Below the pieces are notes generated by a model that was given only the letters and a program-made list of their open reading frames with translations, ran no database searches and was not told the origin of the DNA. The position numbers and the translations under genes are program-made. Of a stretch of 64,000 nt of DNA, positions 2,752 to 30,381 are shown piece after piece. Where the stretch lies: assembly GCA_001001115.1 (NCBI GenBank), contig LCIO01000001.1:71501-135500 (forward strand). The letters are read 5' to 3'. The first letter of the stretch is position 1. Each line of letters starts with the position of its first letter. This DNA is from Candidatus Wolfebacteria bacterium GW2011_GWA1_44_24. GTDB lineage: Bacteria; Patescibacteriota; Minisyncoccia; UBA6257; UBA9933.

Positions 2752-3547
2752 GATTGAAATTGAGCAACGGCGACGCGGTTGCCGTCATTAAAGAAACGTT
2801 TTGAGGAAAAGCGATTCGGAAAAAAAAATCTTCAAATGCTTTTAAATTTTCCAGTTCGGTTTTGGAAACACTGATTTTCACGCCATTTTTATTCGCCAAA
2901 AAACCGATAATTCTTAATCTTGAAAGAAGAAAAGCGTTGTTATTCAAAACAAATCCGCTTGTTTCTATTTTTATTTTATCTTCAGCCATTGCCGTTTTCG
3001 CCTCCCTAATCTGAATTTTAGGGCGTTCAAATTCGCTTTTCGATTTCCAGCCGACATCGGCGATGGATATTCTGATATCCGAAACATCTCTCGGATTAAT
3101 TTCAAGCGGCTCAACGATATATTTTATTTCAGCCGCGTAAATGAAAGATTTTCGGGTTAAACTTTTAATTTTTCCTCCATTTTTGCCGTAAATATCCAGA
3201 GTGTAAGAAAAACCGTCGGCGCCGTAATTGGCGTTGGAATTTTTGATTTCCGCCGCAACCGCGATTTTATCGCCGGTTGGAAAATATTTTACCCAATTTA
3301 CTTGAATCGGAGATAGAGTTTTAATTTCGCAGGATTGACATGACCCGCCGCAATCAATGCCGGTTTCGCTTTGATTTTGTCTATTATCAAAACAACTCGG
3401 CGCCTGTTTTATTATAAAAAAATAAATGCCGTAAAAAATCAAAGAAAAGAAAAACAAATATCCGGCGCCGTAAAGAAGCTGTTTTACTAAACGTTTATTC
3501 ATATTAAATAATTTTAACAAAAAAAATGAAAACAAAAAAGCCGGCAA
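2705..3547 (-). CDS. hypothetical membrane-anchored protein
   Basis: 280 aa ORF with an N-terminal hydrophobic segment and no recognisable motif. Confidence 0.35.
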   Translation of the reverse strand: MPAFLFSFFLLKLFNMNKRLVKQLLYGAGYLFFFSLIFYGIYFFIIKQAPSCFDNRQNQSETGIDCGGSCQSCEIKTLSPIQVNWVKYFPTGDKIAVAAEIKNSNANYGADGFSYTLDIYGKNGGKIKSLTRKSFIYAAEIKYIVEPLEINPRDVSDIRISIADVGWKSKSEFERPKIQIREAKTAMAEDKIKIETSGFVLNNNAFLLSRLRIIGFLANKNGVKISVSKTELENLKAFEDFFFRIAFPQNVSLMTATASPLLNFNLADPNQTQIYVEAIR

Positions 3548-3653
3548 ACCCTACTTTCCCAGCCGCCGAAGCAGCAAGTATCATCGGGACCGTACGCTTT
3601 CACTTCTCTGTTCGGAATGGGAAGAGGTGGGACACATACGGTTAAATCACCGG
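3541..3653 (-). rRNA. rrf: 5S rRNA
   Basis: The reverse complement reads CCGGTGATT...GTCCCACCTCTTCCCATTCCGAACAGAGAAGTGAAAGCGTACGGTCCCGATGATACTTG...GCCGG. This matches the conserved 5S core (CCGAAC.CAGAAGTGAAAC..) and the terminal helix I pairing. Confidence 0.8.
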
Positions 3654-3711
3654 CTTATTTATTTATTCAATTTATTAAATCCTGAACCGAATTACGCGCT
3701 CGGCGCTCCGG

Positions 3712-6688
<2,977 letters not shown>

Positions 6689-6843
6689 CTTCTAAAAACC
6701 AGAGCGCTGAATGCGCAACGCTCCGATTTCGGGACTTAAAAATTGGATTTTTCAGTTTTCAACGAGCAATCGGCCGGTTGTTTCATCTTTAGCATTCCAC
6801 TTTCAATCATCTTGAACCGATGAGCGAAAGCGGAGCGCCAATG

Positions 6844-6868
6844 AAATAAAAAATCCGCCTTGAGGCGG
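6844..6868 (-). terminator. rho-independent terminator between the cupin gene and the 23S rRNA
   Basis: Hairpin CCGCC-TTGA-GGCGG; on the minus strand it is followed by a U-run (plus-strand AATAAAAAAT precedes the stem). Confidence 0.4.
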
Positions 6869-6994
6869 ACAAACATCGACAAAACGCAAATTTCGCCGAA
6901 TGATTCATCCGCTTGATATGTTTAATAATTTAATCATCTTATTTGTAAATTATATGTTTGCGCCCCAATTCTTGTCAATAGACAAAATGACAAT

Positions 6995-7363
6995 TTAGTA
7001 TTCTTCTTTCATCGCCTCGGCTTTGGTTTTTTGAATTCGGTCTGCCGGATGATTCACCGGCGAATAAACGGTGTAAATCTTCAACGGCGTTGAGCCGGTA
7101 TTCCTGAAATTGTGCTTGACGCCGGCATTAACAAAAACCAAATCCCCTTCTTTTACTGGCGACGGCTGGCTCTCTATCACCGCCTCGCCATTGCCTTGAA
7201 CAAAAACCAAAATCTGATCAACGGCGTCGTGAACTTCTTCGCCAATGTCTTCTCTCGGCAACAAAGACATTAAAACAATCTGGGAATGTTTTCCCGTACT
7301 GACCACCTGCCGGAAATTTTCGTTTTGCTTGGCGAGCTCAATTATATTTTTATGAAAAACCAT
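6995..7363 (-). CDS. cupin domain protein
   Basis: 122 aa; beta-barrel cupin-like region GDLVFVNAGVKHNFRNTGSTPLKIYTVYSP. Confidence 0.55.
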   Translation of the reverse strand: MVFHKNIIELAKQNENFRQVVSTGKHSQIVLMSLLPREDIGEEVHDAVDQILVFVQGNGEAVIESQPSPVKEGDLVFVNAGVKHNFRNTGSTPLKIYTVYSPVNHPADRIQKTKAEAMKEEY

Positions 7364-22881: not shown

Positions 22882-24000
22882 TTATTTTTTATCTTTTAAT
22901 TTTTCCGGCAAAAAACTGTCTTTGGAGTATTTTTCGTACTCCTTGCCGTACCCCAATTCTTTCATTAACTTAGTTTCAGGATTGCGCAAATTTAAAGGAA
23001 TAGGCAGGTTGCCAAATTTTTTAACATCCGCCATCGCCTCCATATACGCCTCATAGGCGCTCCTGTCTTTTTTACATTGACACAAATATGCGACTCCATG
23101 CGCCAAGTTAATTCCGCATTCCGGCAAGCCGATTATCTCCACCGCCCTAAAAACATCATTTGCCACCATAAGAGCCGCCGGCTGAGCCAAACCGACATCT
23201 TCGCTGGCAAAAATAACCATCCGTCGGGCAATAAATTTCGGGTCCTCTCCGGCGTCAATCATCCGCGCCAAATAATATAAAGCCGCGTCCGATTGGCCGG
23301 CTCTCATGCTTTTAATAAAAGCTGAAATTGTATTGTAATGCTCCTCTCCTTTTTTATCATAACGCAGAAACTTTGATTGCAAAGCATTCTTCAAATTATC
23401 AACCGTGATTTTTCCGTATAAGCTATTTGTATTTTCGAGTATCGTAATCGCCTGTCTTGCGTCGCCATTTGCCATATTTATCAGCCAATCGCGCGTTTCT
23501 TTGTCCATCTTAAAACCGACGCGCTTTATAATTTTTGCCATCTCTTCGTCTGATAAAGAGTTTAAAATAAAAACGCGGCAACGAGAAAGAAGCGGAGAAA
23601 TAACTTCAAAACTGGGATTCTCCGTGGTAGCGCCGATTAAAGTAATTTTACCGTTTTCCGCAAAAGGCAATAAATAATCCTGTTGGGCTTTATTAAAGCG
23701 GTGGATTTCATCCAAAAATAAAACCTTTGGCTTGCCCCAAGAATTTTCTTCAATAGCGCGTTTAATGTCTTCTTTGCCGGCCGAAACCGCGGAAAGCTCG
23801 TAGATTTGAGCGTCAAGAGCGCTCGCGTATATTTTCGCCAAAGTTGTTTTTCCGCTCCCCGGCGGACCCCACAAAATAAACGAAAAAAGGTGTTTGTTTT
23901 TAACGGCAATATTCAACGGCTTATTTTCCCCAACCAAATGCTCCTGTCCGATAAATTCTTTTAGAGTTTTAGGCCTGATTTTTGACGCCAATGGTTCCAT
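22882..24000 (-). CDS. rarA: replication-associated recombination protein A (AAA+ ATPase)
   Basis: FIGQEHLVGENKPL, Walker A GPPGSGKTTLA, Walker B VLFLDEIHRFNK, and a MgsA-type C-terminal domain. Confidence 0.8.
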   Translation of the reverse strand: MEPLASKIRPKTLKEFIGQEHLVGENKPLNIAVKNKHLFSFILWGPPGSGKTTLAKIYASALDAQIYELSAVSAGKEDIKRAIEENSWGKPKVLFLDEIHRFNKAQQDYLLPFAENGKITLIGATTENPSFEVISPLLSRCRVFILNSLSDEEMAKIIKRVGFKMDKETRDWLINMANGDARQAITILENTNSLYGKITVDNLKNALQSKFLRYDKKGEEHYNTISAFIKSMRAGQSDAALYYLARMIDAGEDPKFIARRMVIFASEDVGLAQPAALMVANDVFRAVEIIGLPECGINLAHGVAYLCQCKKDRSAYEAYMEAMADVKKFGNLPIPLNLRNPETKLMKELGYGKEYEKYSKDSFLPEKLKDKK

Positions 24001-24307
24001 ACGCCTTTATACTACTATCAAAACTCCTCTTTATCAAAGAAAAACTTGTGGTTCGCACTATTGTTTGAAAAAACTCCCGTTTGGAAGTTTTGCGCTCGAA
24101 CCTGTGAAAAAGCCCACCAATAAAGAGAAAAGTGCCGCTTTTCGCGATATTCATCCTATTTGGCTCCACACCCTGAACGAAATCCGAACGCATTTTCGGG
24201 AAACCCCCGACGAATGAAGCCGCCCCGCCGCCGCTCGCTAACGCTCGCCAGCCAGCAAAAAAGTTTTCTCTGCATTTCTGATTTTGCACGCGCCGGATTT
24301 TTTCTTC

Positions 24308-24488
24308 TAAAAGGAAAAGAAAACTTTTTTGCTGGGTTCTGCTCTCAACGAGCAGGCGGCGGGGCTGGCCTCTTTTGTATTCGCTCGGACGACTCGGCAT
24401 TACTCCCGACGACTCGGCATTACTCCCCCCCCCCAACCCCCTCCTGCCGAGCCATCCTCGCTTCGGCAAAAGGATTTTTTGGCGGCGG
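24308..24488. repeat. left arm of a GC-rich inverted repeat pair (about 181 nt)
   Basis: It is about 95 percent identical to the reverse complement of 29168-29356. It contains a 20 nt tandem duplication (GACGACTCGGCATTACTCCC x2) and a C(10-11) homopolymer, and it is embedded in an otherwise AT-rich genome. Confidence 0.85.
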
Positions 24489-24512
24489 ATAGTGTCCTGT
24501 GGATAATTCCCC

Positions 24513-24540
24513 CTTGATTGAACTTATACGTTTTGTATAA
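24513..24540 (+). promoter_or_regulatory. sigma70-like promoter TTGATT-16-TATAAT facing into the cassette
   Basis: TTGATT at about 24513-18 and TATAAT at about 24535-40, immediately inside the left inverted repeat, reading toward the structured leader and the XRE-RT-MTase genes. Confidence 0.4.
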
Positions 24541-24544
24541 TACT

Positions 24545-25060
24545 AAGTAGGACGGTTGCAGTTTAAAAATCAATTCGCGCGAGATCGGTTATCACTTCGA
24601 AGATTCTAGATCATTCTCTGTTATTGAGAATATCTGACCTCTCCTGTTTTGACAAGGAGTGGACCTTGCCCCGACATGTATATACATGTGTGCCCTATGC
24701 TTCATGTAATCCTTGAGGGACAAGTTAAGTCAAGTTGCTTTAGGCGTTGAGCTTAATGCTTCACTTGCACAGGGACTGCCATAACCTCACGGTTACTGGT
24801 ATTACCGGAAGGTTTTTATCGAAAACTGATAACCGTGAGGAGTTGGTGTGTTCCGCGTAGTAAATTAAAGGTCAATTATTAACCGTCCCCTTTAACTAAA
24901 AACACATGGAGCAAACAATGAAACACCAAAATCCAATTGCTGAATTGTGCCTTCCGTATAAAGGGGCGATTATCATTTATGAAGTGGTTGAGGTGCTTAC
25001 GGATAATTTTACAAATTATCCGTATCCTCAAAGACCTTCTGCGGTAATCGCCCCTTAGTC
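24545..25060 (+). ncRNA. about 520 nt highly structured leader / candidate ncRNA upstream of the XRE-RT operon (possible retron-like msr/msd region)
   Basis: No long ORF. It has a perfect 16 nt palindrome ACATGTATATACATGT (24673-24688). A long hairpin has an 11 bp perfect stem CCTCACGGTTA / TAACCGTGAGG (24784-24839) enclosing a nested GTTTT-TATCG-AAAAC hairpin, plus several further stem-loops. It lies between the promoter and the XRE start. Confidence 0.3.
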
Positions 25061-25067
25061 GTTCTAT

Positions 25068-25394
25068 ATGTATACATTTCCTGATTTAATCAAAAAAATT
25101 AGAGACGAAGCTGGTTTAACTCAAGCCGAATTTGCAAAAGCACTCGGCGTATCTGCTGTGCTTATTGCAATGGTAGAAACTGGTCAAAAAGAAGTTTCAA
25201 AAAATTTGCTTATTAAAATTGCTGAATTATTAAATGTTCATCCTTCATCAATAACTCCGTTTCTGTTTATAGATAGAGAGAAATTCAGTAAAGACCCTTC
25301 AGCAATAGATAAAAAATTTATTGAATGGGGGGAGAAAATGCAAACGCACTTAATAAAAGATCGGGCGAAACTCCTCAAAAAATATGCAAACTAG
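25068..25394 (+). CDS. XRE-family HTH transcriptional regulator
   Basis: 108 aa with the HTH_3 motif LTQAEFAKALGVSAVLIAMVETGQKEVSKNLLIKIAELLNV. The start codon sits within the palindrome ATGTATACAT, and the 3' end overlaps the RT start by 11 nt. Confidence 0.7.
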   Translation: MYTFPDLIKKIRDEAGLTQAEFAKALGVSAVLIAMVETGQKEVSKNLLIKIAELLNVHPSSITPFLFIDREKFSKDPSAIDKKFIEWGEKMQTHLIKDRAKLLKKYAN

Positions 25395-26310
25395 TAGATA
25401 CCCAAAACTTTACATACGGAGCAAGAACGAACTGGCAAAACATTTAAGCCATAGTAAGTTTCCGAAAGAGGAGGCGTTGGCTTTAATAAACGACACTCTT
25501 AAAAACTTTAACAAATATTGGAAAGATAACGAATATAAATCAGAACCAGAAAAAGAAAAATTTGTCAGAAGTGCGAAGGGCACACCACTAGGGAGGCTTT
25601 TAGATAACATTAACAAGTCTGTTCTTGCCCCACATGATAAAATGCTCCCCGTTTTTATATTTGGCGGTGTGAAAAATATGAACCATGCGAAAGCGGCAAA
25701 GTATTTACTCGGGAGAAAGCGAAAACGAACCTCTCTAAAATTAGATATAGCTCGCTTCTTTGAACAAATAAGTGAAGAAAGAGTTTATCACTTCCTCCAT
25801 GACAAGTGCGCGTGTAGTAAAAGGGCCGCAAAATTACTTGCAGGTTTTTGTTGTGTACCTAAGGGGCACAAGGGATCCGGTTTTGAATATAAAACGATAG
25901 CTCGCGGATTTGCCACATCCTCACGTCTTGCCATCTGGTGCAATTTAGACACTTTTATCAGGCTGGATCGTCTTGTTCAAAAACGACTTAAAGGGAAAGA
26001 CGCTCGTATCGCTATTTATGTTGATGATATTGGAATAACTGCTAGCAGAGTATCAAAAGAAGAAATGAAAAAGTTATCTGACGAAATTACAAAGCTTCTA
26101 CTAAATGCAGACAGAAACCAAAGATTGCCGATAAATGAGAAAAAGACAAAAATATCTTCCCACGAGGAGGGTATAGAACATCTTGGCTTGCGGTTATACA
26201 GAAATAGATTGTCTGTTGGCGCAAAAACAAAATCAAAAATAGATAGGGCAAGGAATAAAAGTGAACGCAAGCCACTGATTAGATACAAGCATTATGTTGA
26301 GAAAATCTGA
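25384..26310 (+). CDS. reverse transcriptase, retron-like (308 aa)
   Basis: RT motifs LKLDIARFFEQI (motif 2, compare Ec86 LNIDLEDFFPSL), TIARGFATSSRLAIWCNL (motif 4), AIYVDDIGITA (YxDD motif 5), LPINEKKTKI (motif 6, compare Ec86 LVINSKKTCI) and EHLGLRL (motif 7 position). Its size fits retron RTs. Confidence 0.8.
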   Translation: MQTSRYPKLYIRSKNELAKHLSHSKFPKEEALALINDTLKNFNKYWKDNEYKSEPEKEKFVRSAKGTPLGRLLDNINKSVLAPHDKMLPVFIFGGVKNMNHAKAAKYLLGRKRKRTSLKLDIARFFEQISEERVYHFLHDKCACSKRAAKLLAGFCCVPKGHKGSGFEYKTIARGFATSSRLAIWCNLDTFIRLDRLVQKRLKGKDARIAIYVDDIGITASRVSKEEMKKLSDEITKLLLNADRNQRLPINEKKTKISSHEEGIEHLGLRLYRNRLSVGAKTKSKIDRARNKSERKPLIRYKHYVEKI

Positions 26311-26318
26311 TTGCTTGT

Positions 26319-27956
26319 ATGGAAAACTTTGTGTATACTAAAGTTAGCGAGAAAATTATGACCCCCGGTTACGAAAACGATTTAGAGAACGAATATTCAA
26401 AAACTGTCGACCTAGAGCATAGGCGTGCTTTTGGGCAATTCTTTACCCCCTTTAAAATTGCAAAGTTTATGTCGGAGTGGGTTTTAGATAGTGAAAAACA
26501 GGAAATGGAGGTTTTAGATCCAGCCGCGGGCTTTGGGATTTTCCCTCGCGTAATGTCTTCCTTTAATAAGCGAAAAAAAATTAACTTTGACCTCTGGGAG
26601 ATAGACGAAAACATCGCAAAAAAACTAAAAGATGTTATACAAGAAATTAAAATGGAGGCGGTGATACATCAAGCAGATTTTCTAAAAAATGGCTGGGACA
26701 AAAAATATGACGGTATTATTGCAAATCCGCCATATTTCAAACACCACTACATAAATGAAAAAGAGAAAGTTTTTCAGGAAATTTGTCTGCGAACATACTT
26801 TAGATTTAGTATTCAAACTAATATTTACTGCTGGTTTTTAATTAAAGCTATAAATTTACTTGATAAAGGGGGGAGGTTAGCATTTATTGTGCCAAGTGAA
26901 TTTTTTAATGCGAACTATGGTGAAAAAGTTAAAGAGTATCTAAAACAATGTGGTGTTGTCCTTCATTTTATCAGCGTTAATTTTGAGGAAAATGTTTTTG
27001 ATAATGCACTGACTACATCAGTAATTATTCTTGCCGAGAAAAGTCCACAGAAGCATGAAAGTATAAATTTTTACACAGTGCATAATGTGAAAGAACTCGT
27101 TTCTGTAAAAGATTTTCTCAACAAACACCCAAAAAAGACCTTCAAGATTGCTGACCTAAATCCTAAAACAAAATGGAGAAATTATTTTAATGGCGATAAA
27201 GATATATTCTCGAAAGAACTTGTCTCACTTTCGACATTCGGCAAATTTTCTAGGGGCATAGCAACGGGGGCAAATCATTATTTCACACTTTCCTTACCAG
27301 AAGTTGAGGAGCATAAAATATCAAAAAAATGCCTGCGCCCATGTATCACAAAAGCCGTGCACGCGAAAGATATTTACTTTAGTGACGAGCATTTTGATAA
27401 ACTCAGGGAACAAGAAAAGAAAGTTTATTTATTTGATGGGGAAAAATCACAAGAACAAAGTTGTAAAAACTATATTGCACTTGGGGAAAAACAGGGTGTC
27501 AGTCAAAAATATCTTACAAAAAATCGAGATCCGTGGTATGCGCTAGAAAAAAGAGATGTTGCCCCGATTTGGGTAACGGTTTTTGGGAGAAGTGGTTTAA
27601 AATTTGTATGGAACGATTCTTCCTGTATTAACCTAACTTGTTTTCATGCTTTTTATCCTACCGAATTAGGAAAAAACTACCTAGATATATTATTTATTTA
27701 TCTGTATTCAAATACGGCCCAAAAATTATTTGACAGAGAAAAAAGAGAATATGGCGGGGGGCTTGGAAAATTTGAGCCAAACGATCTTAACAAAGCTTTT
27801 GTTGTCGATTTTAGATTGCTCGACAAGAAACAAATCTCTATTTTAGCGAACCTCCAAAGAGATTTTCTCAAATCAGAAAAAAACGAAAGAGAACAATTTT
27901 TGAAAAAAGCTGATGATATTTTTAAACCTCTTGCTCAATCAGTTTTTTCAAAATAG
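26319..27956 (+). CDS. N6-adenine DNA methyltransferase, gamma class (M.TaqI/Eco57I-like) with C-terminal target-recognition domain
   Basis: Motif X FGQFFTP, motif I VLDPAAGFGIF, motif IV IIANPPYF (NPPY), then a ~300 aa variable domain. It starts 8 nt after the RT stop. Confidence 0.85.
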   Translation: MENFVYTKVSEKIMTPGYENDLENEYSKTVDLEHRRAFGQFFTPFKIAKFMSEWVLDSEKQEMEVLDPAAGFGIFPRVMSSFNKRKKINFDLWEIDENIAKKLKDVIQEIKMEAVIHQADFLKNGWDKKYDGIIANPPYFKHHYINEKEKVFQEICLRTYFRFSIQTNIYCWFLIKAINLLDKGGRLAFIVPSEFFNANYGEKVKEYLKQCGVVLHFISVNFEENVFDNALTTSVIILAEKSPQKHESINFYTVHNVKELVSVKDFLNKHPKKTFKIADLNPKTKWRNYFNGDKDIFSKELVSLSTFGKFSRGIATGANHYFTLSLPEVEEHKISKKCLRPCITKAVHAKDIYFSDEHFDKLREQEKKVYLFDGEKSQEQSCKNYIALGEKQGVSQKYLTKNRDPWYALEKRDVAPIWVTVFGRSGLKFVWNDSSCINLTCFHAFYPTELGKNYLDILFIYLYSNTAQKLFDREKREYGGGLGKFEPNDLNKAFVVDFRLLDKKQISILANLQRDFLKSEKNEREQFLKKADDIFKPLAQSVFSK

Positions 27957-28818
27957 CTTCATCAAGTTTTGCCTTGCCACCCTCAAAGCTTACGTGATGA
28001 AGAAGCCTCCCTCCGGCAAGCTCTTTTCTTATACCCAAAAGATTCGGCTCGCCTATATTTTCGCTTATTAAATGACCATTGTTTAAATACATGTGAATGG
28101 TCTCCTTGTACTGATTTTTAGGATTCTTTTCAATAACAAAAGCTAGTGCGTCATTTTTTAAACCGACAACCTTTTTATTTTTGATACCCTTTTCTGAAAT
28201 ATCTGTGTCTCTCAATAATGACAAAATTTCGCTGAACGATATCACATAGATTGCATCAAAAAATACTTGAACGTAAAAATGCGGAACATTAAAAGTATCA
28301 ATCCATTTTAGTACGATCAAAAGATCCTCCACTTTTGGAGTGAAACTCAAAAACGGACGTTCTTTTTTGGCGATAAATTTTTTTGTTAGATATGCGCTAG
28401 ATCGCACTTCAAATCCCGCTGTCGCTTGCGGAACAATTTTTGCAAGTTCTCCATGAGATAATTTACTGATATCGTCACCCCATTCTTTTTTGTAAATTTT
28501 GGGGTCAAATAGTAAAACATCAGGCCTCTTACCGATTGCGTCCAGCTCATCTTGATACTGATTATAAAAGTCTTTGAAGTCGGGGTCTCCAGCAATAATC
28601 TTGTCTGATTTCCCATATCTAACGGGGACTAAATCAAGGTTAGATGCTTTAAGGGAACGAAAGAAAAGCATCTCCGCCCAATCTCCTTGTTCGTTGTGTG
28701 TAAGAAAATCAGAAAATGCTTGCGTGGGTGGTGTTCCTCTCTTGCGTTTCGCTCCCAGATTAACAATATTTGGCGAAATATCCTTCGCAATTTTATGTAT
28801 TTTGTCCTTATAACTCAT
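27922..28818 (-). CDS. putative type II restriction endonuclease (cognate of the methyltransferase)
   Basis: 298 aa with no strong family match. A possible PD...(D/E)xK-like core is PDVLLFD ... GFEVRSS. It is translationally coupled (ATGA overlap) to the upstream C-protein gene, and its 3' end overlaps the convergent MTase by 35 nt. Confidence 0.45.
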   Translation of the reverse strand: MSYKDKIHKIAKDISPNIVNLGAKRKRGTPPTQAFSDFLTHNEQGDWAEMLFFRSLKASNLDLVPVRYGKSDKIIAGDPDFKDFYNQYQDELDAIGKRPDVLLFDPKIYKKEWGDDISKLSHGELAKIVPQATAGFEVRSSAYLTKKFIAKKERPFLSFTPKVEDLLIVLKWIDTFNVPHFYVQVFFDAIYVISFSEILSLLRDTDISEKGIKNKKVVGLKNDALAFVIEKNPKNQYKETIHMYLNNGHLISENIGEPNLLGIRKELAGGRLLHHVSFEGGKAKLDEAILKKLIEQEV

Positions 28819-29054
28819 ATTCCTTTGAAAAAATCAGAGATGCTGATTTTTAGCGCTTTAGAAACTTTTTCGATATTTTCAAGCGTTATGTTCTTTTCTG
28901 CTCGTTCAATCATGCCGATATATGTCCGGTGAACACCGGCGCGTGAGGCTAATTCTTCCTGTGATAAACCTAACCTCGCCCGCTCCTCGCGGACTTTTTT
29001 ACCAAATTTGATAAGGATTTCTCTTTTCATAGTTGATAACTGTAGTATATCCAC
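28815..29054 (-). CDS. controller (C) protein, XRE-family HTH
   Basis: 79 aa; LSQEELASRAGVHRTYIGMIERAEKNITLENIEKVSKAL HTH. It sits immediately upstream of, and overlaps, the putative REase gene, the classic C-R arrangement. Confidence 0.65.
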   Translation of the reverse strand: MDILQLSTMKREILIKFGKKVREERARLGLSQEELASRAGVHRTYIGMIERAEKNITLENIEKVSKALKISISDFFKGI

Positions 29055-29167
29055 TTGCTAACTTTGGTGCTACATACTATAGTTAGCGTATGGATTTATT
29101 GATTTTAGGGAGTTCCTACAACTTGCCCGCGCACGGGAGCGGTGGGGCAAGGGCAAGAATAAATAAT

Positions 29168-29356
29168 TCCGCCGCCAAAAAATCCTTTTGCCGAAGCGAG
29201 GACGGCTCGGCAGGAGGGGGTTGGGGGGGAGTAATGCCGAGTCGTCCGAGCGAATACAAAAGAGGCCAGCCCCGCCGCCTGCTCGTTGAGAGCAGAACCC
29301 AGCAAAAAAGTTTTCTTTTCCGCAGAACCCAGCAAAAAAGTTTTCTTTTCCTTTTT
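29168..29356. repeat. right arm of the GC-rich inverted repeat pair (about 189 nt)
   Basis: Reverse-complement match to 24308-24488. It carries a 30 nt tandem duplication (GCAGAACCCAGCAAAAAAGTTTTCTTTTCC x2) and G-runs (GGGGGTTGGGGGGGA). Confidence 0.85.
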
Positions 29357-29424
29357 CCTTCGACTTTGCTTAGGATGGTGAATTTGCCGAACCACAAGTT
29401 TTTCTTTGGCGGCAAATTCCATTT

Positions 29425-30174
29425 CTAAAGATTAAACAACAACTTGATTATTAACGCTATAACAACCACTATGAGTAACCCTCTAAGCCACTTATCACCA
29501 AACTTTAGTGCAGTGTGTGCGCCGATATACGAGCCCACCATTGAAGTAATGGCCAATGGCACCGCAAGAGAAAAATCGATGTTGTCTCTTCTTACAAAAA
29601 CAAAAAGTGCCGCAATAAGCATAATGGCGGTAACAAAAACAGAATCAGCAATTCCTTGCATTAAGTCTCTACCAAGCAACAAGACAAATAAAAATATCAA
29701 AAATGTTGCGACCCCTACCGAAAAGAACCCGCCGTATATACCCAAGATGAAACATAAAATACCTGCAATAATAAAATCTTTTCTATTGAGTTTTTTGTTT
29801 TCAATCTCAAGGCCAGCAGAAGGTTTTTTGAAAATCAAAAAGATTAAGCCGAAAAAGAAAATAGCAACAATTTTAGATAAAATCTCTTTGTTAATATCAA
29901 GGACAAGATTAGCACCGATAAAAGCACCTATGAGCGAGATTATGGAGAGAGGTAAAACAATTCTAAAATTTATTTTATGGTTCTTCCAATATTTGAAGAC
30001 CGCAACGACATTTATCAACCACCCCGAAAGAATATTGGTACCAATGGCTAATGTGGGTGTTAGCCCAAGAAAAAGTAGAGCTGGCAACGTAATGAGTGCT
30101 CCGGCACCAACTTGTGCCCCTACAAATCCCCCCACCAAACCGGCAAGAGATATAAAAATTAAACTAAAATCCAT
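29425..30174 (-). CDS. TauE/SafE (DUF81) family sulfite/anion exporter
   Basis: 249 aa, 7-8 TM segments; N-terminal LAGLVGGFVGAQVGAGALITLPALLFLGL typical of the family. Confidence 0.7.
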   Translation of the reverse strand: MDFSLIFISLAGLVGGFVGAQVGAGALITLPALLFLGLTPTLAIGTNILSGWLINVVAVFKYWKNHKINFRIVLPLSIISLIGAFIGANLVLDINKEILSKIVAIFFFGLIFLIFKKPSAGLEIENKKLNRKDFIIAGILCFILGIYGGFFSVGVATFLIFLFVLLLGRDLMQGIADSVFVTAIMLIAALFVFVRRDNIDFSLAVPLAITSMVGSYIGAHTALKFGDKWLRGLLIVVVIALIIKLLFNL

Positions 30175-30306
30175 TTATGAAAAATTTTCTTTTACTTTTA
30201 ATTTTATTAAAAACGAAACCGCCAATTGATTTTTTCGCCCAAAATTCCGTTCAATTTGGTCGCCGAGCGAAGCGAGGCGACCTACAAATCGTTGACTTTT
30301 CCTTAC

Positions 30307-30381
30307 TGGCTCCGCGGGTAGGATTCGAACCTACGACCAATCGCTTAACAGGCGACCGCTCTACCACTGAGCTACCGCGGA
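30307..30381 (-). tRNA. tRNA-Asn (anticodon GTT), CCA encoded
   Basis: Acceptor TCCGCGG/CCGCGGA, D arm GCTC-AGTGGTA-GAGC, anticodon stem GTCGC/GCGAT with loop CTGTTAA, and T arm GTAGG-TTCGAAT-CCTAC. Confidence 0.85.

Follow-up and report, generated by a model that had tools for sequence, protein, structure and literature searches.

Inverted GC-rich repeats around a retron and restriction-modification cassette of Candidatus Wolfebacteria: probable arms of a decayed element associated with a large serine recombinase

The 64-kb stretch of DNA analysed here, termed the window, carries a defence cassette enclosed by two GC-rich inverted repeats and located between a gene for an MgsA/RarA-type ATPase and genes for a TauE/SafE family protein and tRNA-Asn. 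The host, a Candidatus Wolfebacteria, is of groundwater source. The features of the locus are given below, where IR1 refers to the repeat module, LSR to a large serine recombinase, IR2 and IR2' to sequence of the LSR gene 3' end, and L-numbers to the contigs and loci with which the window was compared.

22882-24000, minus strand: gene for an MgsA/RarA-type AAA ATPase (Pfam MgsA_C, AAA_assoc_2, AAA), the left chromosomal flank.
24035-24055, no strand: left copy of O, 21 nt, member of a 100% complementary pair and an inversion breakpoint (L093 is flipped exactly at O).
24056-24160, plus strand: remains of a degenerate IR2', which in intact elements is an inverted copy of the LSR gene 3' end lying ahead of the module; L018 and L097 have their IR2' at this place.
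24161-24217, minus strand: X, the outer terminus of the full module, whose minus strand is a pseudo-tRNA-Asn 3' end (…GGGTGTGGAGCCA); identical to the L018 and L097 termini.
24218-24251, plus strand: core' (GCCGCCCCGCCGCCGCTCG…), partner of the core at 24336-24366 in helix P0 (helix 1 is 97% paired).
24252-24335, plus strand: long hairpin HP-A, with 18-nt arms CCAGCAAAAAAGTTTTCT and AGAAAACTTTTTTGCTGG and a 48-nt loop; the arms are an inverted pair and covary between lineages.
24309-24489, plus strand: IR-L, the inner part of the left module, comprising the HP-A 3' arm, the core GCTCTCAACGAGCAGGCGGCGGGGC, HP-B with a C-rich loop and the tail …ATTTTTTGGCGGCGGA.
24514-24541, plus strand: promoter-like site TTGATT-16-TATAAT just inside IR-L, reading toward the retron region (10 of 12 consensus positions).
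24545-25067, plus strand: non-coding stretch (~520 nt) upstream of the HTH (HTH_VI) and reverse transcriptase (RT_VI) genes, presumed site of a putative retron ncRNA.
25068-26310, plus strand: probable type VI retron proteins, HTH at 25068-25394 and reverse transcriptase at 25384-26310 (PADLOC HTH_VI 4e-14, RT_VI 1.1e-27; Pfam HTH_3, RVT_1).
26319-29054, both strands: Type II restriction-modification (R-M) system, with methyltransferase 26319-27956 (plus), AccI-like endonuclease 27922-28818 (minus) and C protein 28815-29054 (minus).
29103-29167, minus strand: junction module with hairpin HP-C (CTTGCCC … GGGCAAG, 29122-29157), conserved beside one arm only.
29168-29355, minus strand: IR-R, the right module, truncated at the boundary of the HP-A loop and its 3' arm; contains a 30-nt duplication (29292-29351) and G7 and G5 runs.
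29356-29408, no strand: right copy of O, with a spacer (29356-29387) and the 21-mer (29388-29408).
29425-30174, minus strand: gene for a membrane protein of the TauE/SafE family, separating the cassette from tRNA-Asn (Pfam TauE 6e-44).
30214-30306, minus strand: IR2 in degenerate form, a relic of LSR 3'-end sequence immediately downstream of tRNA-Asn, aligned to L097 IR2.
30307-30381, minus strand: tRNA-Asn (GTT; ARAGORN and Rfam), the landmark where the intact sister element integrated.

The cargo comprises the retron genes and an R-M system in which methyltransferase, endonuclease and controller genes lie together, as in Type II systems with a C protein (Pfam Eco57I/N6_Mtase, RE_AccI 3e-81 and HTH_3; PADLOC MTase_II 2e-137, REase_II and Control_protein 9e-23). 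The cargo genes next to each arm read inward, and the stretch upstream of the retron genes (24545-25067) displayed no Rfam match. The initial annotation described the interior as free of mobility enzymes, and domain and defence-gene profile searches (Pfam, PADLOC) together with tblastn likewise found no recombinase or transposase between the two repeats.

A repeat search of the window resolved the pair into two inverted blocks, 24313-24407 with 29227-29321 (95 nt, 100% identity) and 24428-24489 with 29168-29229 (62 nt, 98%), in agreement with the ~95% reverse-complement identity originally estimated, and no further copy was found within the 64-kb window. The repeats are also GC-rich in AT-rich surroundings as described, presenting 57.5% and 54.3% GC, the corresponding values being 36.9% for the cargo and 41.8% for the window as a whole. 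Each contains its own tandem duplication, of 20 nt at 24388-24427 in the left repeat and of 30 nt at 29292-29351 in the right one, and the expected homopolymer runs were located (C10 at 24425-24434 and C5 at 24437 on the left, G5 and G7 on the right). The sub-motif noticed in both orientations, including a copy near 24256, corresponds to CCAGCAAAAAAGTTTTCT, which occurs four times in the window versus 0.08 by chance, at 24252(+), 24318(-), 29299(+) and 29329(+). The occurrence at 24252 was considered as a third, independent copy of the repeat and rejected, as it is the 5' arm of HP-A and thus a regular part of the full module. The sequence common to both repeats starts with the HP-A 3' arm, while the full left repeat extends outward via the long hairpin and the pseudo-tRNA end and spans 329 nt (24161-24489). 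On its outer side the right copy is cut short and lacks the HP-A 5' arm, core' and X, and the same truncation point is observed in L025, L032, L045 and L087. The outermost inverted repeat, O, is a perfect 21-nt pair (24035-24055 and 29388-29408) that measures 53-56 nt in sister contigs; it is not present at other family loci and was therefore rejected as a component of the family. Between contigs, as judged from assemblies and not reads, the C-run varies from C7 to C10 and the duplications occur in the window only. Slippage-prone tracts, one of three interpretations initially offered, are consistent with this variation but are not the whole story: the duplications and run-length differences are slippage noise in the arms, not a switch. 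A phase switch acting through them was discarded, since the arms are non-coding and vary between contigs, and no promoter or ORF is touched.

Copies of the module beyond the window were collected by matching a 24-25-nt core pattern to GTDB species representatives, an approach that relies on one conserved core and thus carries an ascertainment bias, and that yields loci on MAG contigs often broken at the repeat. The pattern matched 74 stretches, with record titles naming Ryan-, Giovannoni-, Magasanik-, Roizman-, Doudna- and Kerfeldbacteria, Saccharibacteria, Paceibacterota, WWE3 and others, as well as a few non-CPR taxa; the search for additional copies recommended at the outset therefore revealed a repeat that is not specific to this locus. 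Family copies display 76-96% identity to the window copy over the aligned parts and number one or two elements per genome, not many. Six of the 74 stretches contain inverted pairs 3-5 kb apart, with arms of 296-307 nt that are 95-100% identical. From outside to inside, the full module consists of X, a G+C stem formed by core' and core that encloses the long, A/T-rich HP-A, then HP-B with its C-rich loop, and a tail ending in …TTTTTYGGCGG. Module alignments reveal a sharp inner boundary, with cargo always beginning at the same position beyond the tail; the module also ends sharply on its outer side, where different genomes have unrelated flanks. A homologue of HP-C (CTTTTCC…GGAAAAG) adjoins the arm in many lineages. 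The slot holds 3-5 kb of cargo, mostly R-M genes, which is wholly different between pairs and includes LexA-fused methyltransferases, HinP1I- and BsaWI-type endonucleases, Vsr, OLD/AAA_15 ATPases and a MerA-like oxidoreductase. The hairpins covary, 95.4% of cells being paired compared with 40-55% for slid partners, and compensatory changes were observed in 16 of 32 pairs. In some lineages the HP-A and HP-B loops are themselves reverse-complemented, a sign that a generic process at inverted repeats is at work. No viral contig matched the core pattern, so a phage origin receives no support. A keyword search of 8 million papers found no description of such elements, and the best reading of the sequence comparisons is that they are a new family of LSR-associated cassettes with IR1 arms.

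The search for a cognate enzyme, also recommended initially, identified an LSR (Resolvase + Recombinase + Zn_ribbon_recom) just outside the IR1 pair in intact copies elsewhere, which adjoin the 3' end of a tRNA gene and are ordered tRNA, IR2, LSR, IR2', IR1, cargo and IR1'. An LSR or LSR fragment lies within 3 kb of 13 of 60 copies and a tRNA gene within 3 kb of 22 of 60, with the tRNA 3' end facing the module in 11 of the 13 nearest. The ending of X' resembles the tRNA at the LSR site (Asn 7/7, Ala 6/7 and Ser 6/7 positions) and an identical IR2 follows both; in the window, the last 7 nt of X (…GGAGCCA) equal the tRNA-Asn 3' end, and at other loci the terminus tracks the tRNA species. Intact counterparts are found in L097 and related contigs, in which the same retron and AccI-like R-M cassette, with cargo ends 98-99% identical and the same repeats, accompanies an intact LSR at tRNA-Asn. 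In L097, the tRNA-Asn abuts IR2 and the LSR, a 493-residue Resolvase+Recombinase+Zn_ribbon protein encoded beside the cassette. The same element thus occupies different contexts, between TauE and MgsA in the window and next to Pur_DNA_glyco, DUF2585, tRNA-Asn and LSR in L097. An ORF of 203/208 residues between LSR and cassette was dismissed as a gene because it reads across the GC-rich module.

The window itself revealed no LSR when searched over its 64 kb by tblastn with eight family LSRs, and displays sequence relics only. As expected for a tRNA-associated island, tRNA-Asn is followed by the IR2 relic at one side and a tRNA-like element end, X, is found at the other, while the recombinase is present in L097 and absent here. 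The IR2 relic aligns to L097 IR2 with a score of 27 (shuffles 14.3 ± 2.1; 0/500), whereas the evidence for IR2' is weak, consisting of the shared GTTTTGCGCTCG and terminal TCATCCTATT of L018 and L097 at a score equalled by 2 of 500 shuffles. When O was compared with L097, the IR2 inner end together with 9 nt of LSR coding sequence gave a score of 25 (shuffles 13 ± 2; 0/500), suggesting that O is probably a relic of the 3' end of the recombinase gene. No empty TauE-MgsA site was found among the contigs compared. Two metagenome scans, for 41 nt of the arm specific to the window and for 64 nt of MgsA flank with O, gave 0 hits, an uninformative result because a JGI contig that contains the latter sequence is missing from the collection scanned. 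Mobility is deduced from the distribution of the family, since the analysis revealed neither an excised form nor an empty site nor direct activity of a recombinase, and the LSR link could reflect co-location at tRNA hot spots, as the enzyme lies outside the pair and near only about one-fifth of copies.

Related contigs reveal at least two, and probably three, orientation states of the cassette in the population. L093 is a k141 contig of 80 kb whose flanks match the window at 100% identity over 7461 and 4125 nt; its 5.3-kb segment is inverted at 56-nt O repeats, which are shorter than k. L002, an independent scaffold from another sample, agrees with this inversion, while L092 presents the orientation of the window, opposite to L093. 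L009 and L010 fit an inversion at the long IR1 arms, which is less secure than the O flip of L093 because orientation calls over long, near-identical arms (L009, L010, L100 and L102) can reflect assembler choice. Relative to the LSR flank, the cassette likewise appears in both orientations (L097-type versus L100 and L102), with arms near-identical over more than k and hence assembler-ambiguous. In L011, the same arms enclose a different R-M system and the HP-C junction module is retained despite the change of cargo; an A/G marker located in the arm stays with its cargo end in every case. Since several orientation states exist and a sister strain carries another R-M system between the same arms, the arms and outer relic repeats are sites of DNA rearrangement. 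The initial suggestion that the GC-rich repeats are inversion sites for a trans-acting recombinase has partial support, in that inversion is real in the population, but the secure flip uses the short O repeats rather than the GC-rich arms, and the action of a recombinase is hypothetical. Both orientations are found among close relatives, as in an inverton, but a dedicated invertase was not found at the locus (Pfam, PADLOC and tblastn) and no promoter-gene or coding junction changes, the cargo operons having internal promoters. The promoter-like site of MgsA overlaps the O boundary and is the same after the flip.

The explanation we favour, with a probability of roughly 0.62, is that the window repeats are arms of a decayed, non-autonomous LSR-associated cassette and that they act as recombination substrates. 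The window would hold a recombinase-less copy at a tRNA-Asn island in which IR2 and IR2' survive only as relics, with a complete left IR1 and a right IR1 lacking its outer third. The LSR may move the family between genomes by recognising sequence resembling a tRNA 3' end, and the pseudo-tRNA termini of IR1 would be att-derived. In the recombinase-less copy, flips and cargo exchange would arise by ordinary homologous recombination or template switching between the inverted arms, an arrangement that would allow cargo to be exchanged or flipped without looping out. A purely passive role as homology arms does not account for the sharpness of the inner boundary, nor for the strength with which the hairpins are conserved and covary, and a repeat of 56 nt (or 21 nt) is short for RecA-type recombination.

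In a different and rather unlikely proposal, the IR1 arms, through their pseudo-tRNA termini, are true LSR target sites and the enzyme, encoded in cis or by another element, flips or exchanges the cassette site-specifically, as natural recombinase-mediated cassette exchange or an invertible defence module rather than by passive homologous recombination. On one side the LSR unit meets a real tRNA 3' end and on the other the X terminus of IR1, and the IR2 sequence next to the two is identical, the look expected of serine-integrase attL and attR with near-palindromic sites; full cassette ends carry the same tRNA-like half-site in inverted orientation, and the best-supported flip occurred at a 56-nt repeat resembling the LSR 3' end. 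Both cassette orientations relative to the LSR flank would fit as well, but those of L100 and L102 are the assembler-ambiguous ones, and HP-C is proximal to the LSR in seven of eight LSR loci, which argues that flipping is not frequent there. Moreover, rearrangements occur although the window has no LSR and its right arm no X, a flip has no visible promoter or coding effect, and small hairpin loops flip too, unlike the action of a site-specific enzyme. Equally tentative is the idea that IR1 is a portable landing pad or exchange site, its tRNA-3'-end mimics being recognised by the family LSR, such that each cassette would serve as cargo and at the same time as a further place of integration; the LSR could stack, flip or swap whole defence cassettes between distant Patescibacteria as a natural cassette-exchange system, and the hairpins would be DNA or RNA cofactors.

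It appears improbable that IR1 is an independent, small, non-autonomous MITE-like element, two copies of which bracket genes to form a composite transposon or mobile insertion cassette served by a transposase elsewhere. Sharp termini with unrelated flanks in many genomes, terminal inverted repeats, solo and truncated copies (L025, L032, L037, L045 and L087) and the enzyme-free interior all fit such an origin, but no target-site duplication was found at the four pairs examined (the window ends, L018, L021 and L052), nor an autonomous partner: among 1035 ORFs of the 74 loci no DDE or other transposase recurs near copies, the LSR, outside the pair, being the only recurrent enzyme. One or two elements per genome, and a cargo boundary no less sharp than the outer one, a feature that composite transposons need not have, also speak against it. 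The MITE-like ends initially proposed therefore do not hold in the strict sense, but the wider notion of ends of a mobilisable defence cassette is the best supported of the three original alternatives, as the same cassette lies beside an intact LSR at tRNA-Asn and the module occurs across CPR lineages with unrelated cargo and flanks. A primary role of IR1 as a transcribed structured RNA, whether a leader, insulator or antisense regulator for cargo or recombinase with the inverted pair as by-product, is similarly doubtful. Stem covariation is strong in four helices, the outer-to-cargo strand has more G-U type than A-C type pairs, CCUCC-like strings occur in the C-rich loops and the window cargo genes next to each arm point inward. 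However, palindromes held in register by gene conversion yield the same covariation signal, and reverse-complemented HP-A and HP-B loops in several lineages would be intolerable for RNA function. Rfam 15 covariance models found no match in the arms, either at gathering score in a scan of the whole window or at E<5 in 23900-29500, the arms have no upstream promoter or canonical terminator, and the folding energy of the left arm, only ~2 sd below shuffles on either strand, is uninformative alone. It is very improbable indeed that the alternative orientations are assembly artefacts around inert relics in one fixed arrangement. Assemblers do break or collapse here, as cassette-only contigs ending inside the arms show (L015-L017, L094 and L096), L002 has an N-gap in the G-run, and L008/L092 display an odd internal deletion in one arm. 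However, L093 spans both 56-nt O repeats at k=141, with single k-mers covering each junction and flanks identical to the window, the scaffold from another sample agrees with it, and the cargo replacement of L011 cannot come from assembly.

Comparison with known systems places the LSR-associated cassette near several of them. Mobile insertion cassettes and other MITE-bounded composites carry passenger genes between inverted ends without an internal transposase; their ends derive from known IS with a DDE transposase and generate target duplications, features not found in the window family. In the staphylococcal and enterococcal cassette chromosomes (SCCmec and ECC), a single conserved chromosomal site receives cassettes that are moved by large serine recombinases (Ccr) and whose variable cargo includes R-M genes; cassettes without a recombinase, known as "pseudo-SCC", also persist and may form arrays. 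SCC uses rlmH as its integration site rather than tRNA genes, has short direct and inverted repeats at its ends and carries the ccr genes inside the cassette; as described, it differs from the window family in having neither hairpin-rich arms of ~300 nt nor pseudo-tRNA termini. Furuta, Abe and Kobayashi (2010; PMC2853133) described R-M units bracketed by long inverted repeats with no internal mobility gene, in which one R-M system replaces another at the same site, and suggested a non-autonomous unit moved in trans. The window resembles these units in its enzyme-free R-M system between inverted repeats and in the allelic R-M substitution at one site. Their repeats, of 26-65 nt, are confined to single loci and in some cases accompanied by short target duplications, in contrast with the IR1 arms, which are ~300 nt long, structured, LSR-linked and distributed over many CPR lineages, with a pseudo-tRNA 3' end and no target duplication. 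The tycheposons of Prochlorococcus (bioRxiv 10.1101/2020.12.28.424599) are, in the part of that account used here, elements of integrase and cargo beside tRNA genes, flanked by partial tRNA copies, with degenerate remnants, stacked integrations, one or two elements per genome and a minority using LSRs. To that extent they share with the window family small-genome hosts with few classical mobile elements, a tRNA site, remnants and copy number, but they mostly use tyrosine recombinases and direct partial-tRNA repeats, and the same part of the account does not describe long structured inverted arms. Type I hsdS inversions (PMC7672463) recombine coding sequence, with a change of specificity, and have a dedicated adjacent invertase. 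Such invertons and shufflons of R-M systems share with the window the inverted repeats in a defence locus and the presence of both orientations in a population, but here whole operons flip with their own promoters and no change of product or expression is predicted.

Taken alone, the window offers a more modest lesson: its repeats mark a decayed tRNA-Asn island and account for the breaks and conflicts at this locus among assemblies of the population. The genomes of Patescibacteria (CPR) are tiny, and restriction-modification is thought to be what these bacteria rely on; to our knowledge they largely lack CRISPR, and the routes by which they acquire and exchange R-M systems are poorly known. 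A module of ~300 nt in many CPR lineages, with unrelated cargo and 76-96% identity to the window copy over the aligned parts, implies recent gene flow between lineages by one shared vehicle. If the linked LSR and its tRNA-end-like sites are confirmed, they would equip organisms whose genetic tractability is only now emerging with a compact integration system of their own, and would show how defence cassettes such as a retron with an R-M system are kept, flipped and replaced without loss.

The inverted repeats around the retron and restriction-modification (R-M) cargo of the window are real, chance being excluded by a wide margin. A repeat search recovered two blocks, 24313-24407/29227-29321 (95 nt, 100% complementary) and 24428-24489/29168-29229 (62 nt, 98%), in agreement with the near-identity described in the initial annotation. 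Also recovered were the separate tandem duplications of 20 nt on the left (24388-24427) and 30 nt on the right (29292-29351), the high G+C content of the arms (57.5% and 54.3%, compared with 36.9% in the 4.7-kb interior and 41.8% in the window), their homopolymer runs (C10/C5 and G7/G5) and the 18-mer CCAGCAAAAAAGTTTTCT, which occurs four times against 0.08 expected. The copy reported near 24256 forms the 5′ arm of a hairpin, HP-A. Two features had been overlooked: the left repeat extends outward by ~150 nt absent from the right copy, giving a full left module at 24161-24489, and a 21-nt perfect inverted repeat, termed O, lies outermost (24035-24055/29388-29408). The right module is truncated where the loop of HP-A meets the 3′ arm, as are the copies in L025, L032, L045 and L087. 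No additional arm copies occur within the 64-kb window. The cargo and flanks comprise the following.

Cargo and flanks of the repeats in the window
24514-24541, interior: promoter-like site TTGATT-16-TATAAT
To 25067, interior: ~520 nt of non-coding sequence, containing local hairpins and preceding the HTH and reverse transcriptase (RT) genes
Interior: HTH protein and 308-aa RT, best scores with type VI retron models
Interior: Type II methyltransferase
Interior: AccI-like endonuclease
Interior: C (control) protein
Left flank: MgsA/RarA ATPase gene
Right flank: TauE gene, then tRNA-Asn

As the initial annotation stated, no recombinase or transposase was found between the repeats. The non-coding stretch before the HTH and RT genes (24514-25067), which has no Rfam match, is presumably the predicted type VI retron ncRNA. 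The best promoter-like site of MgsA, TTGATA-17-TAGTAT (24032-24037, minus strand), has a -35 hexamer that spans the O boundary, so that in either orientation some of the MgsA promoter belongs to O. Directly past the TauE stop, GAATTTGCCG … CGGCAAATTC form a 10-bp hairpin (29409-29424 with 29378-29408) whose loop is most of the O repeat. The hairpin may serve as TauE terminator or belong to an older palindrome where the insertion took place. Elsewhere, 23S and 5S rRNA genes lie at 3539-6695, and no 16S gene was called in the 64 kb.

Further copies in related genomes, which the initial annotation had proposed to seek, were collected with one exact 24-25-nt core pattern, GCTCTSAACGAGCA[N]GGCGGCGGGGC, in one genome per species. 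The core matched 74 stretches labelled as Ryan-, Giovannoni-, Magasanik-, Roizman-, Doudna-, Kerfeld-, Taylor-, Vogel-, Yanofsky- and Falkowbacteria, Saccharibacteria, Paceibacterota, WWE3 and others, with a few non-CPR labels. Inverted pairs 3-5 kb apart were present in 6 of the 74, many matches lying at contig ends. Aligned copies share one architecture, listed here from the outside inwards.

Parts of the module
Part 1 (outermost): X, the outer terminus
Part 2: G+C stem core′/core around HP-A (18-20-bp A/T-rich arms, ~45-nt loop)
Part 3: small hairpin GCTC-TGAAC-GAGC
Part 4: HP-B, a hairpin with a C-rich loop
Part 5 (innermost): tail to …TTTTTYGGCGG, past which sequences are unrelated

A third hairpin, HP-C, follows the tail on one side only. 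Complete pairs measure 296-307 nt and are 95-100% identical. Across 37 distinct copies, canonical pairs fill 95.4% of pair cells, compared with 40-55% once the partners are shifted by 1-3 columns, and compensatory changes affect 16 of 32 pairs (111 cells; 0/500 shuffles as high), mostly in HP-A and HP-B. The module is a conserved, structured and paired boundary of a cargo slot. Its outer limit is sharp; beyond it every genome differs, presenting either a tRNA and terminator or ordinary genes, and no target duplication was found at the outer boundaries. The HP-B loop is reverse-complemented in L022, L032, L059, L083 and L087, and the HP-A loop in L026 and L077; flipping on a small scale has thus happened repeatedly between inverted arms, in several lineages. 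This argues for a DNA-level palindrome over a strand-specific RNA, and an RNA role of the module receives a smaller share of our confidence.

The sole recurrent enzyme at family loci is a large serine recombinase (LSR; Resolvase, Recombinase and Zn_ribbon_recom domains), whose gene lies immediately beyond one arm and reads away from that arm (L018, L021, L031, L042, L052, L056, L058, L060, L064 and L081). A candidate for the cognate recombinase, raised initially as something to look for, recurs beside arms of the family; none lies between those of the window. Where the outer flank reaches 700 nt or more (60 copies), an LSR or LSR fragment lies within 3 kb of 13 and a tRNA within 3 kb of 22, the 3′ end facing the module in 11 of the 13 nearest tRNAs. 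A second inverted repeat encloses the LSR gene: the final ~126-135 nt of the gene (IR2) recur upstream of its start (IR2′) with 98-100% identity. IR2 adjoins the CCA end of the real tRNA, while IR2′ adjoins X. Read from the opposite strand, X finishes like the tRNA beside IR2 (Asn GGAGCCA/GGAGCCA, Ala TCCACCA/ACCACCA, Ser TCCGCCA/ACCGCCA) and carries a T-loop-like GTTCG ~25 nt upstream, which identifies it as a pseudo-tRNA 3′ end. Of 8 LSR loci, 7 have HP-C at the LSR-proximal arm, so that cassette orientation is usually stable. Alternative decay routes of the LSR-cassette element are seen in L038 (1803-1993) and L091 (6408-6600), where tRNA-Ala is followed by IR2 with the recombinase body deleted; in L091 the initial ~20 nt of IR2 join core′ directly. 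Beyond the distal arm of L052 (CAZMFO010000012.1, ~6840-7090), a ~70-nt segment comprising a tRNA T-arm-like GGGTTCAAATCCC, a hairpin and TTCC|TGGCGG is directly repeated around a tRNA-like sequence uncalled by ARAGORN, which looks like stacked integrations at a single site.

Ten further contigs were reached through a near-identical RT (same 90% cluster). One of them, L097, reads Pur_DNA_glyco, DUF2585, 224-aa ORF, tRNA-Asn, IR2, LSR (493 aa), IR2′, X, full module, retron … R-M and module (contig end). It shares 98-99% identity with the window at the cargo ends and 95% in X, and its chromosomal context differs from TauE/MgsA, so the same cassette occupies two contexts. In L100 and L102 the LSR flank is at the C-protein side instead, an indecisive orientation because the arms are near-identical over more than the assembly k. 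In the window, 30214-30306, directly past tRNA-Asn, aligns with L097 IR2 (score 27 against 14.3 +/- 2.1 in shuffles, 0/500), 24056-24160 holds the IR2′ position with short identities kept, and O resembles the inner end of L097 IR2 together with 9 nt of the LSR coding region (25 against 13 +/- 2, 0/500). All three look like relics of an LSR region; the window therefore holds a decayed, recombinase-less derivative of an element of this kind at a tRNA-Asn island.

Sister contigs from the same groundwater system were found by exact-protein look-up with MgsA, TauE, RT and endonuclease; every related sequence comes from a metagenome assembly. The window order, TauE - O - arm - C/endonuclease … retron - arm - MgsA, recurs in L008/L092 (GCA_000996445.1) and L095, where O measures 53-56 nt on both sides. 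L093, an 80-kb MEGAHIT k141 contig whose flanks match the window at 100% identity for 7461 and 4125 nt, has the entire 5.3-kb segment between the O repeats inverted. O being shorter than k, each L093 junction is covered by single k-mers, and the MgsA-O-arm-C-protein junction recurs in an independent scaffold, L002; an artefactual origin of the alternative arrangements accordingly takes a smaller share. L093 reads tRNA-Asn … IR2′ relic - X - module - retron … R-M - module, which fits the family layout, and the window order thus seems to be the derived, flipped state. L009 (70-kb scaffold) and L010 (k141) show TauE - O - arm - retron side, as expected from a flip at the long arms, but this evidence is weaker than for L093 because the identical stretch approaches k. 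Inversion, as proposed initially, is thereby borne out at O, and less securely at the arms that were proposed as its sites. An A/G difference in the arms always travels with its cargo end, placing crossover within the outer identical ~95-125 nt. In L011, TauE - O - the same arm and 65-nt junction hairpin as in the window precede wholly different cargo (small HTH protein, 203-aa protein, LexA-fused methyltransferase, DUF8370), with a diverged inverted arm at its far end: cargo has been replaced between the same arms. The proposed slippage is matched by C-runs of 7-10 nt among the contigs compared, of which only the window has the two tandem duplications. The arms and O are thus sites of rearrangement and cargo exchange in this population.

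Other variants accompany these. L008/L092 (LCAK01000003.1) has a ~50-nt deletion inside the TauE-side arm (L008 10919, …CATTACTCCC|AGGATTTTTT…) and an RT gene (L008 13795-14628) called at 277 rather than 308 aa, either real decay or G/C-run assembly error. Upstream of an identical MgsA gene, L003 (1-209) and L006 (1-430) present more haplotypes of the intergenic region: the L003 arm has an inner half from another family variant (…GGCGGAATTCCCC…), and L006 lacks the arm and has fragments of X-like and IR2′-like sequence. The MgsA-adjacent locus, with five states or more, is a hot spot.

The family would spread with an LSR that recognises tRNA-3′-end-like sequence, in which case the module termini would be att-derived. 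In the LSR-less window copy, inverted sequences would undergo homologous recombination or template switching, producing the flips and the swap; the arms being inverted, cargo would be flipped or exchanged rather than deleted. We consider this passive process the probable one (roughly 60%), since the flip has no visible regulatory consequence, loops flip at every scale and orientation is usually stable. The same three observations count against exchange or inversion actively driven by a recombinase, which we regard as unlikely despite the att-like geometry, the shortness of O, the sharp inner boundary and the strongly conserved hairpins. As for the MITE-like ends of a mobilisable defence cassette suggested initially, mobility agrees with the two contexts, but target duplication is absent and an independent MITE-like element is given a smaller share.

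Genes between arm pairs are unrelated from locus to locus, the majority being R-M or defence-type: LexA-fused and other methyltransferases (14+4 loci), Vsr (5), OLD/AAA_15 ATPases (4), and HinP1I-type and BsaWI-type endonucleases. Cargo in L021 and L054 falls outside this majority, and the L027 pair (JAUYHD010000035.1, 573-4378) encloses membrane proteins and a 560-aa MerA-like pyridine-nucleotide-disulphide oxidoreductase; the slot is therefore open to genes other than defence.

Cassette chromosomes are moved by LSRs, and recombinase-less derivatives exist; they are not known to have ~300-nt hairpin-rich inverted arms with pseudo-tRNA termini, shared across a superphylum. Tycheposons are tRNA-adjacent and cargo-carrying, with partial tRNAs at their flanks and sometimes an LSR; they are not described as having such arms and termini or as being shared so widely. 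R-M units with long inverted repeats at their flanks undergo allelic substitution at the same site (PMC2853133), again without these three features. A keyword search of the literature, incomplete in coverage and so absence of evidence only, returned no description of such elements in Patescibacteria. We classify the element as a recombinase-associated, tRNA-linked cargo cassette, which is new relative to the nearest described cases in its ~300-nt hairpin-rich inverted arms, its pseudo-tRNA termini and its sharing across the superphylum.
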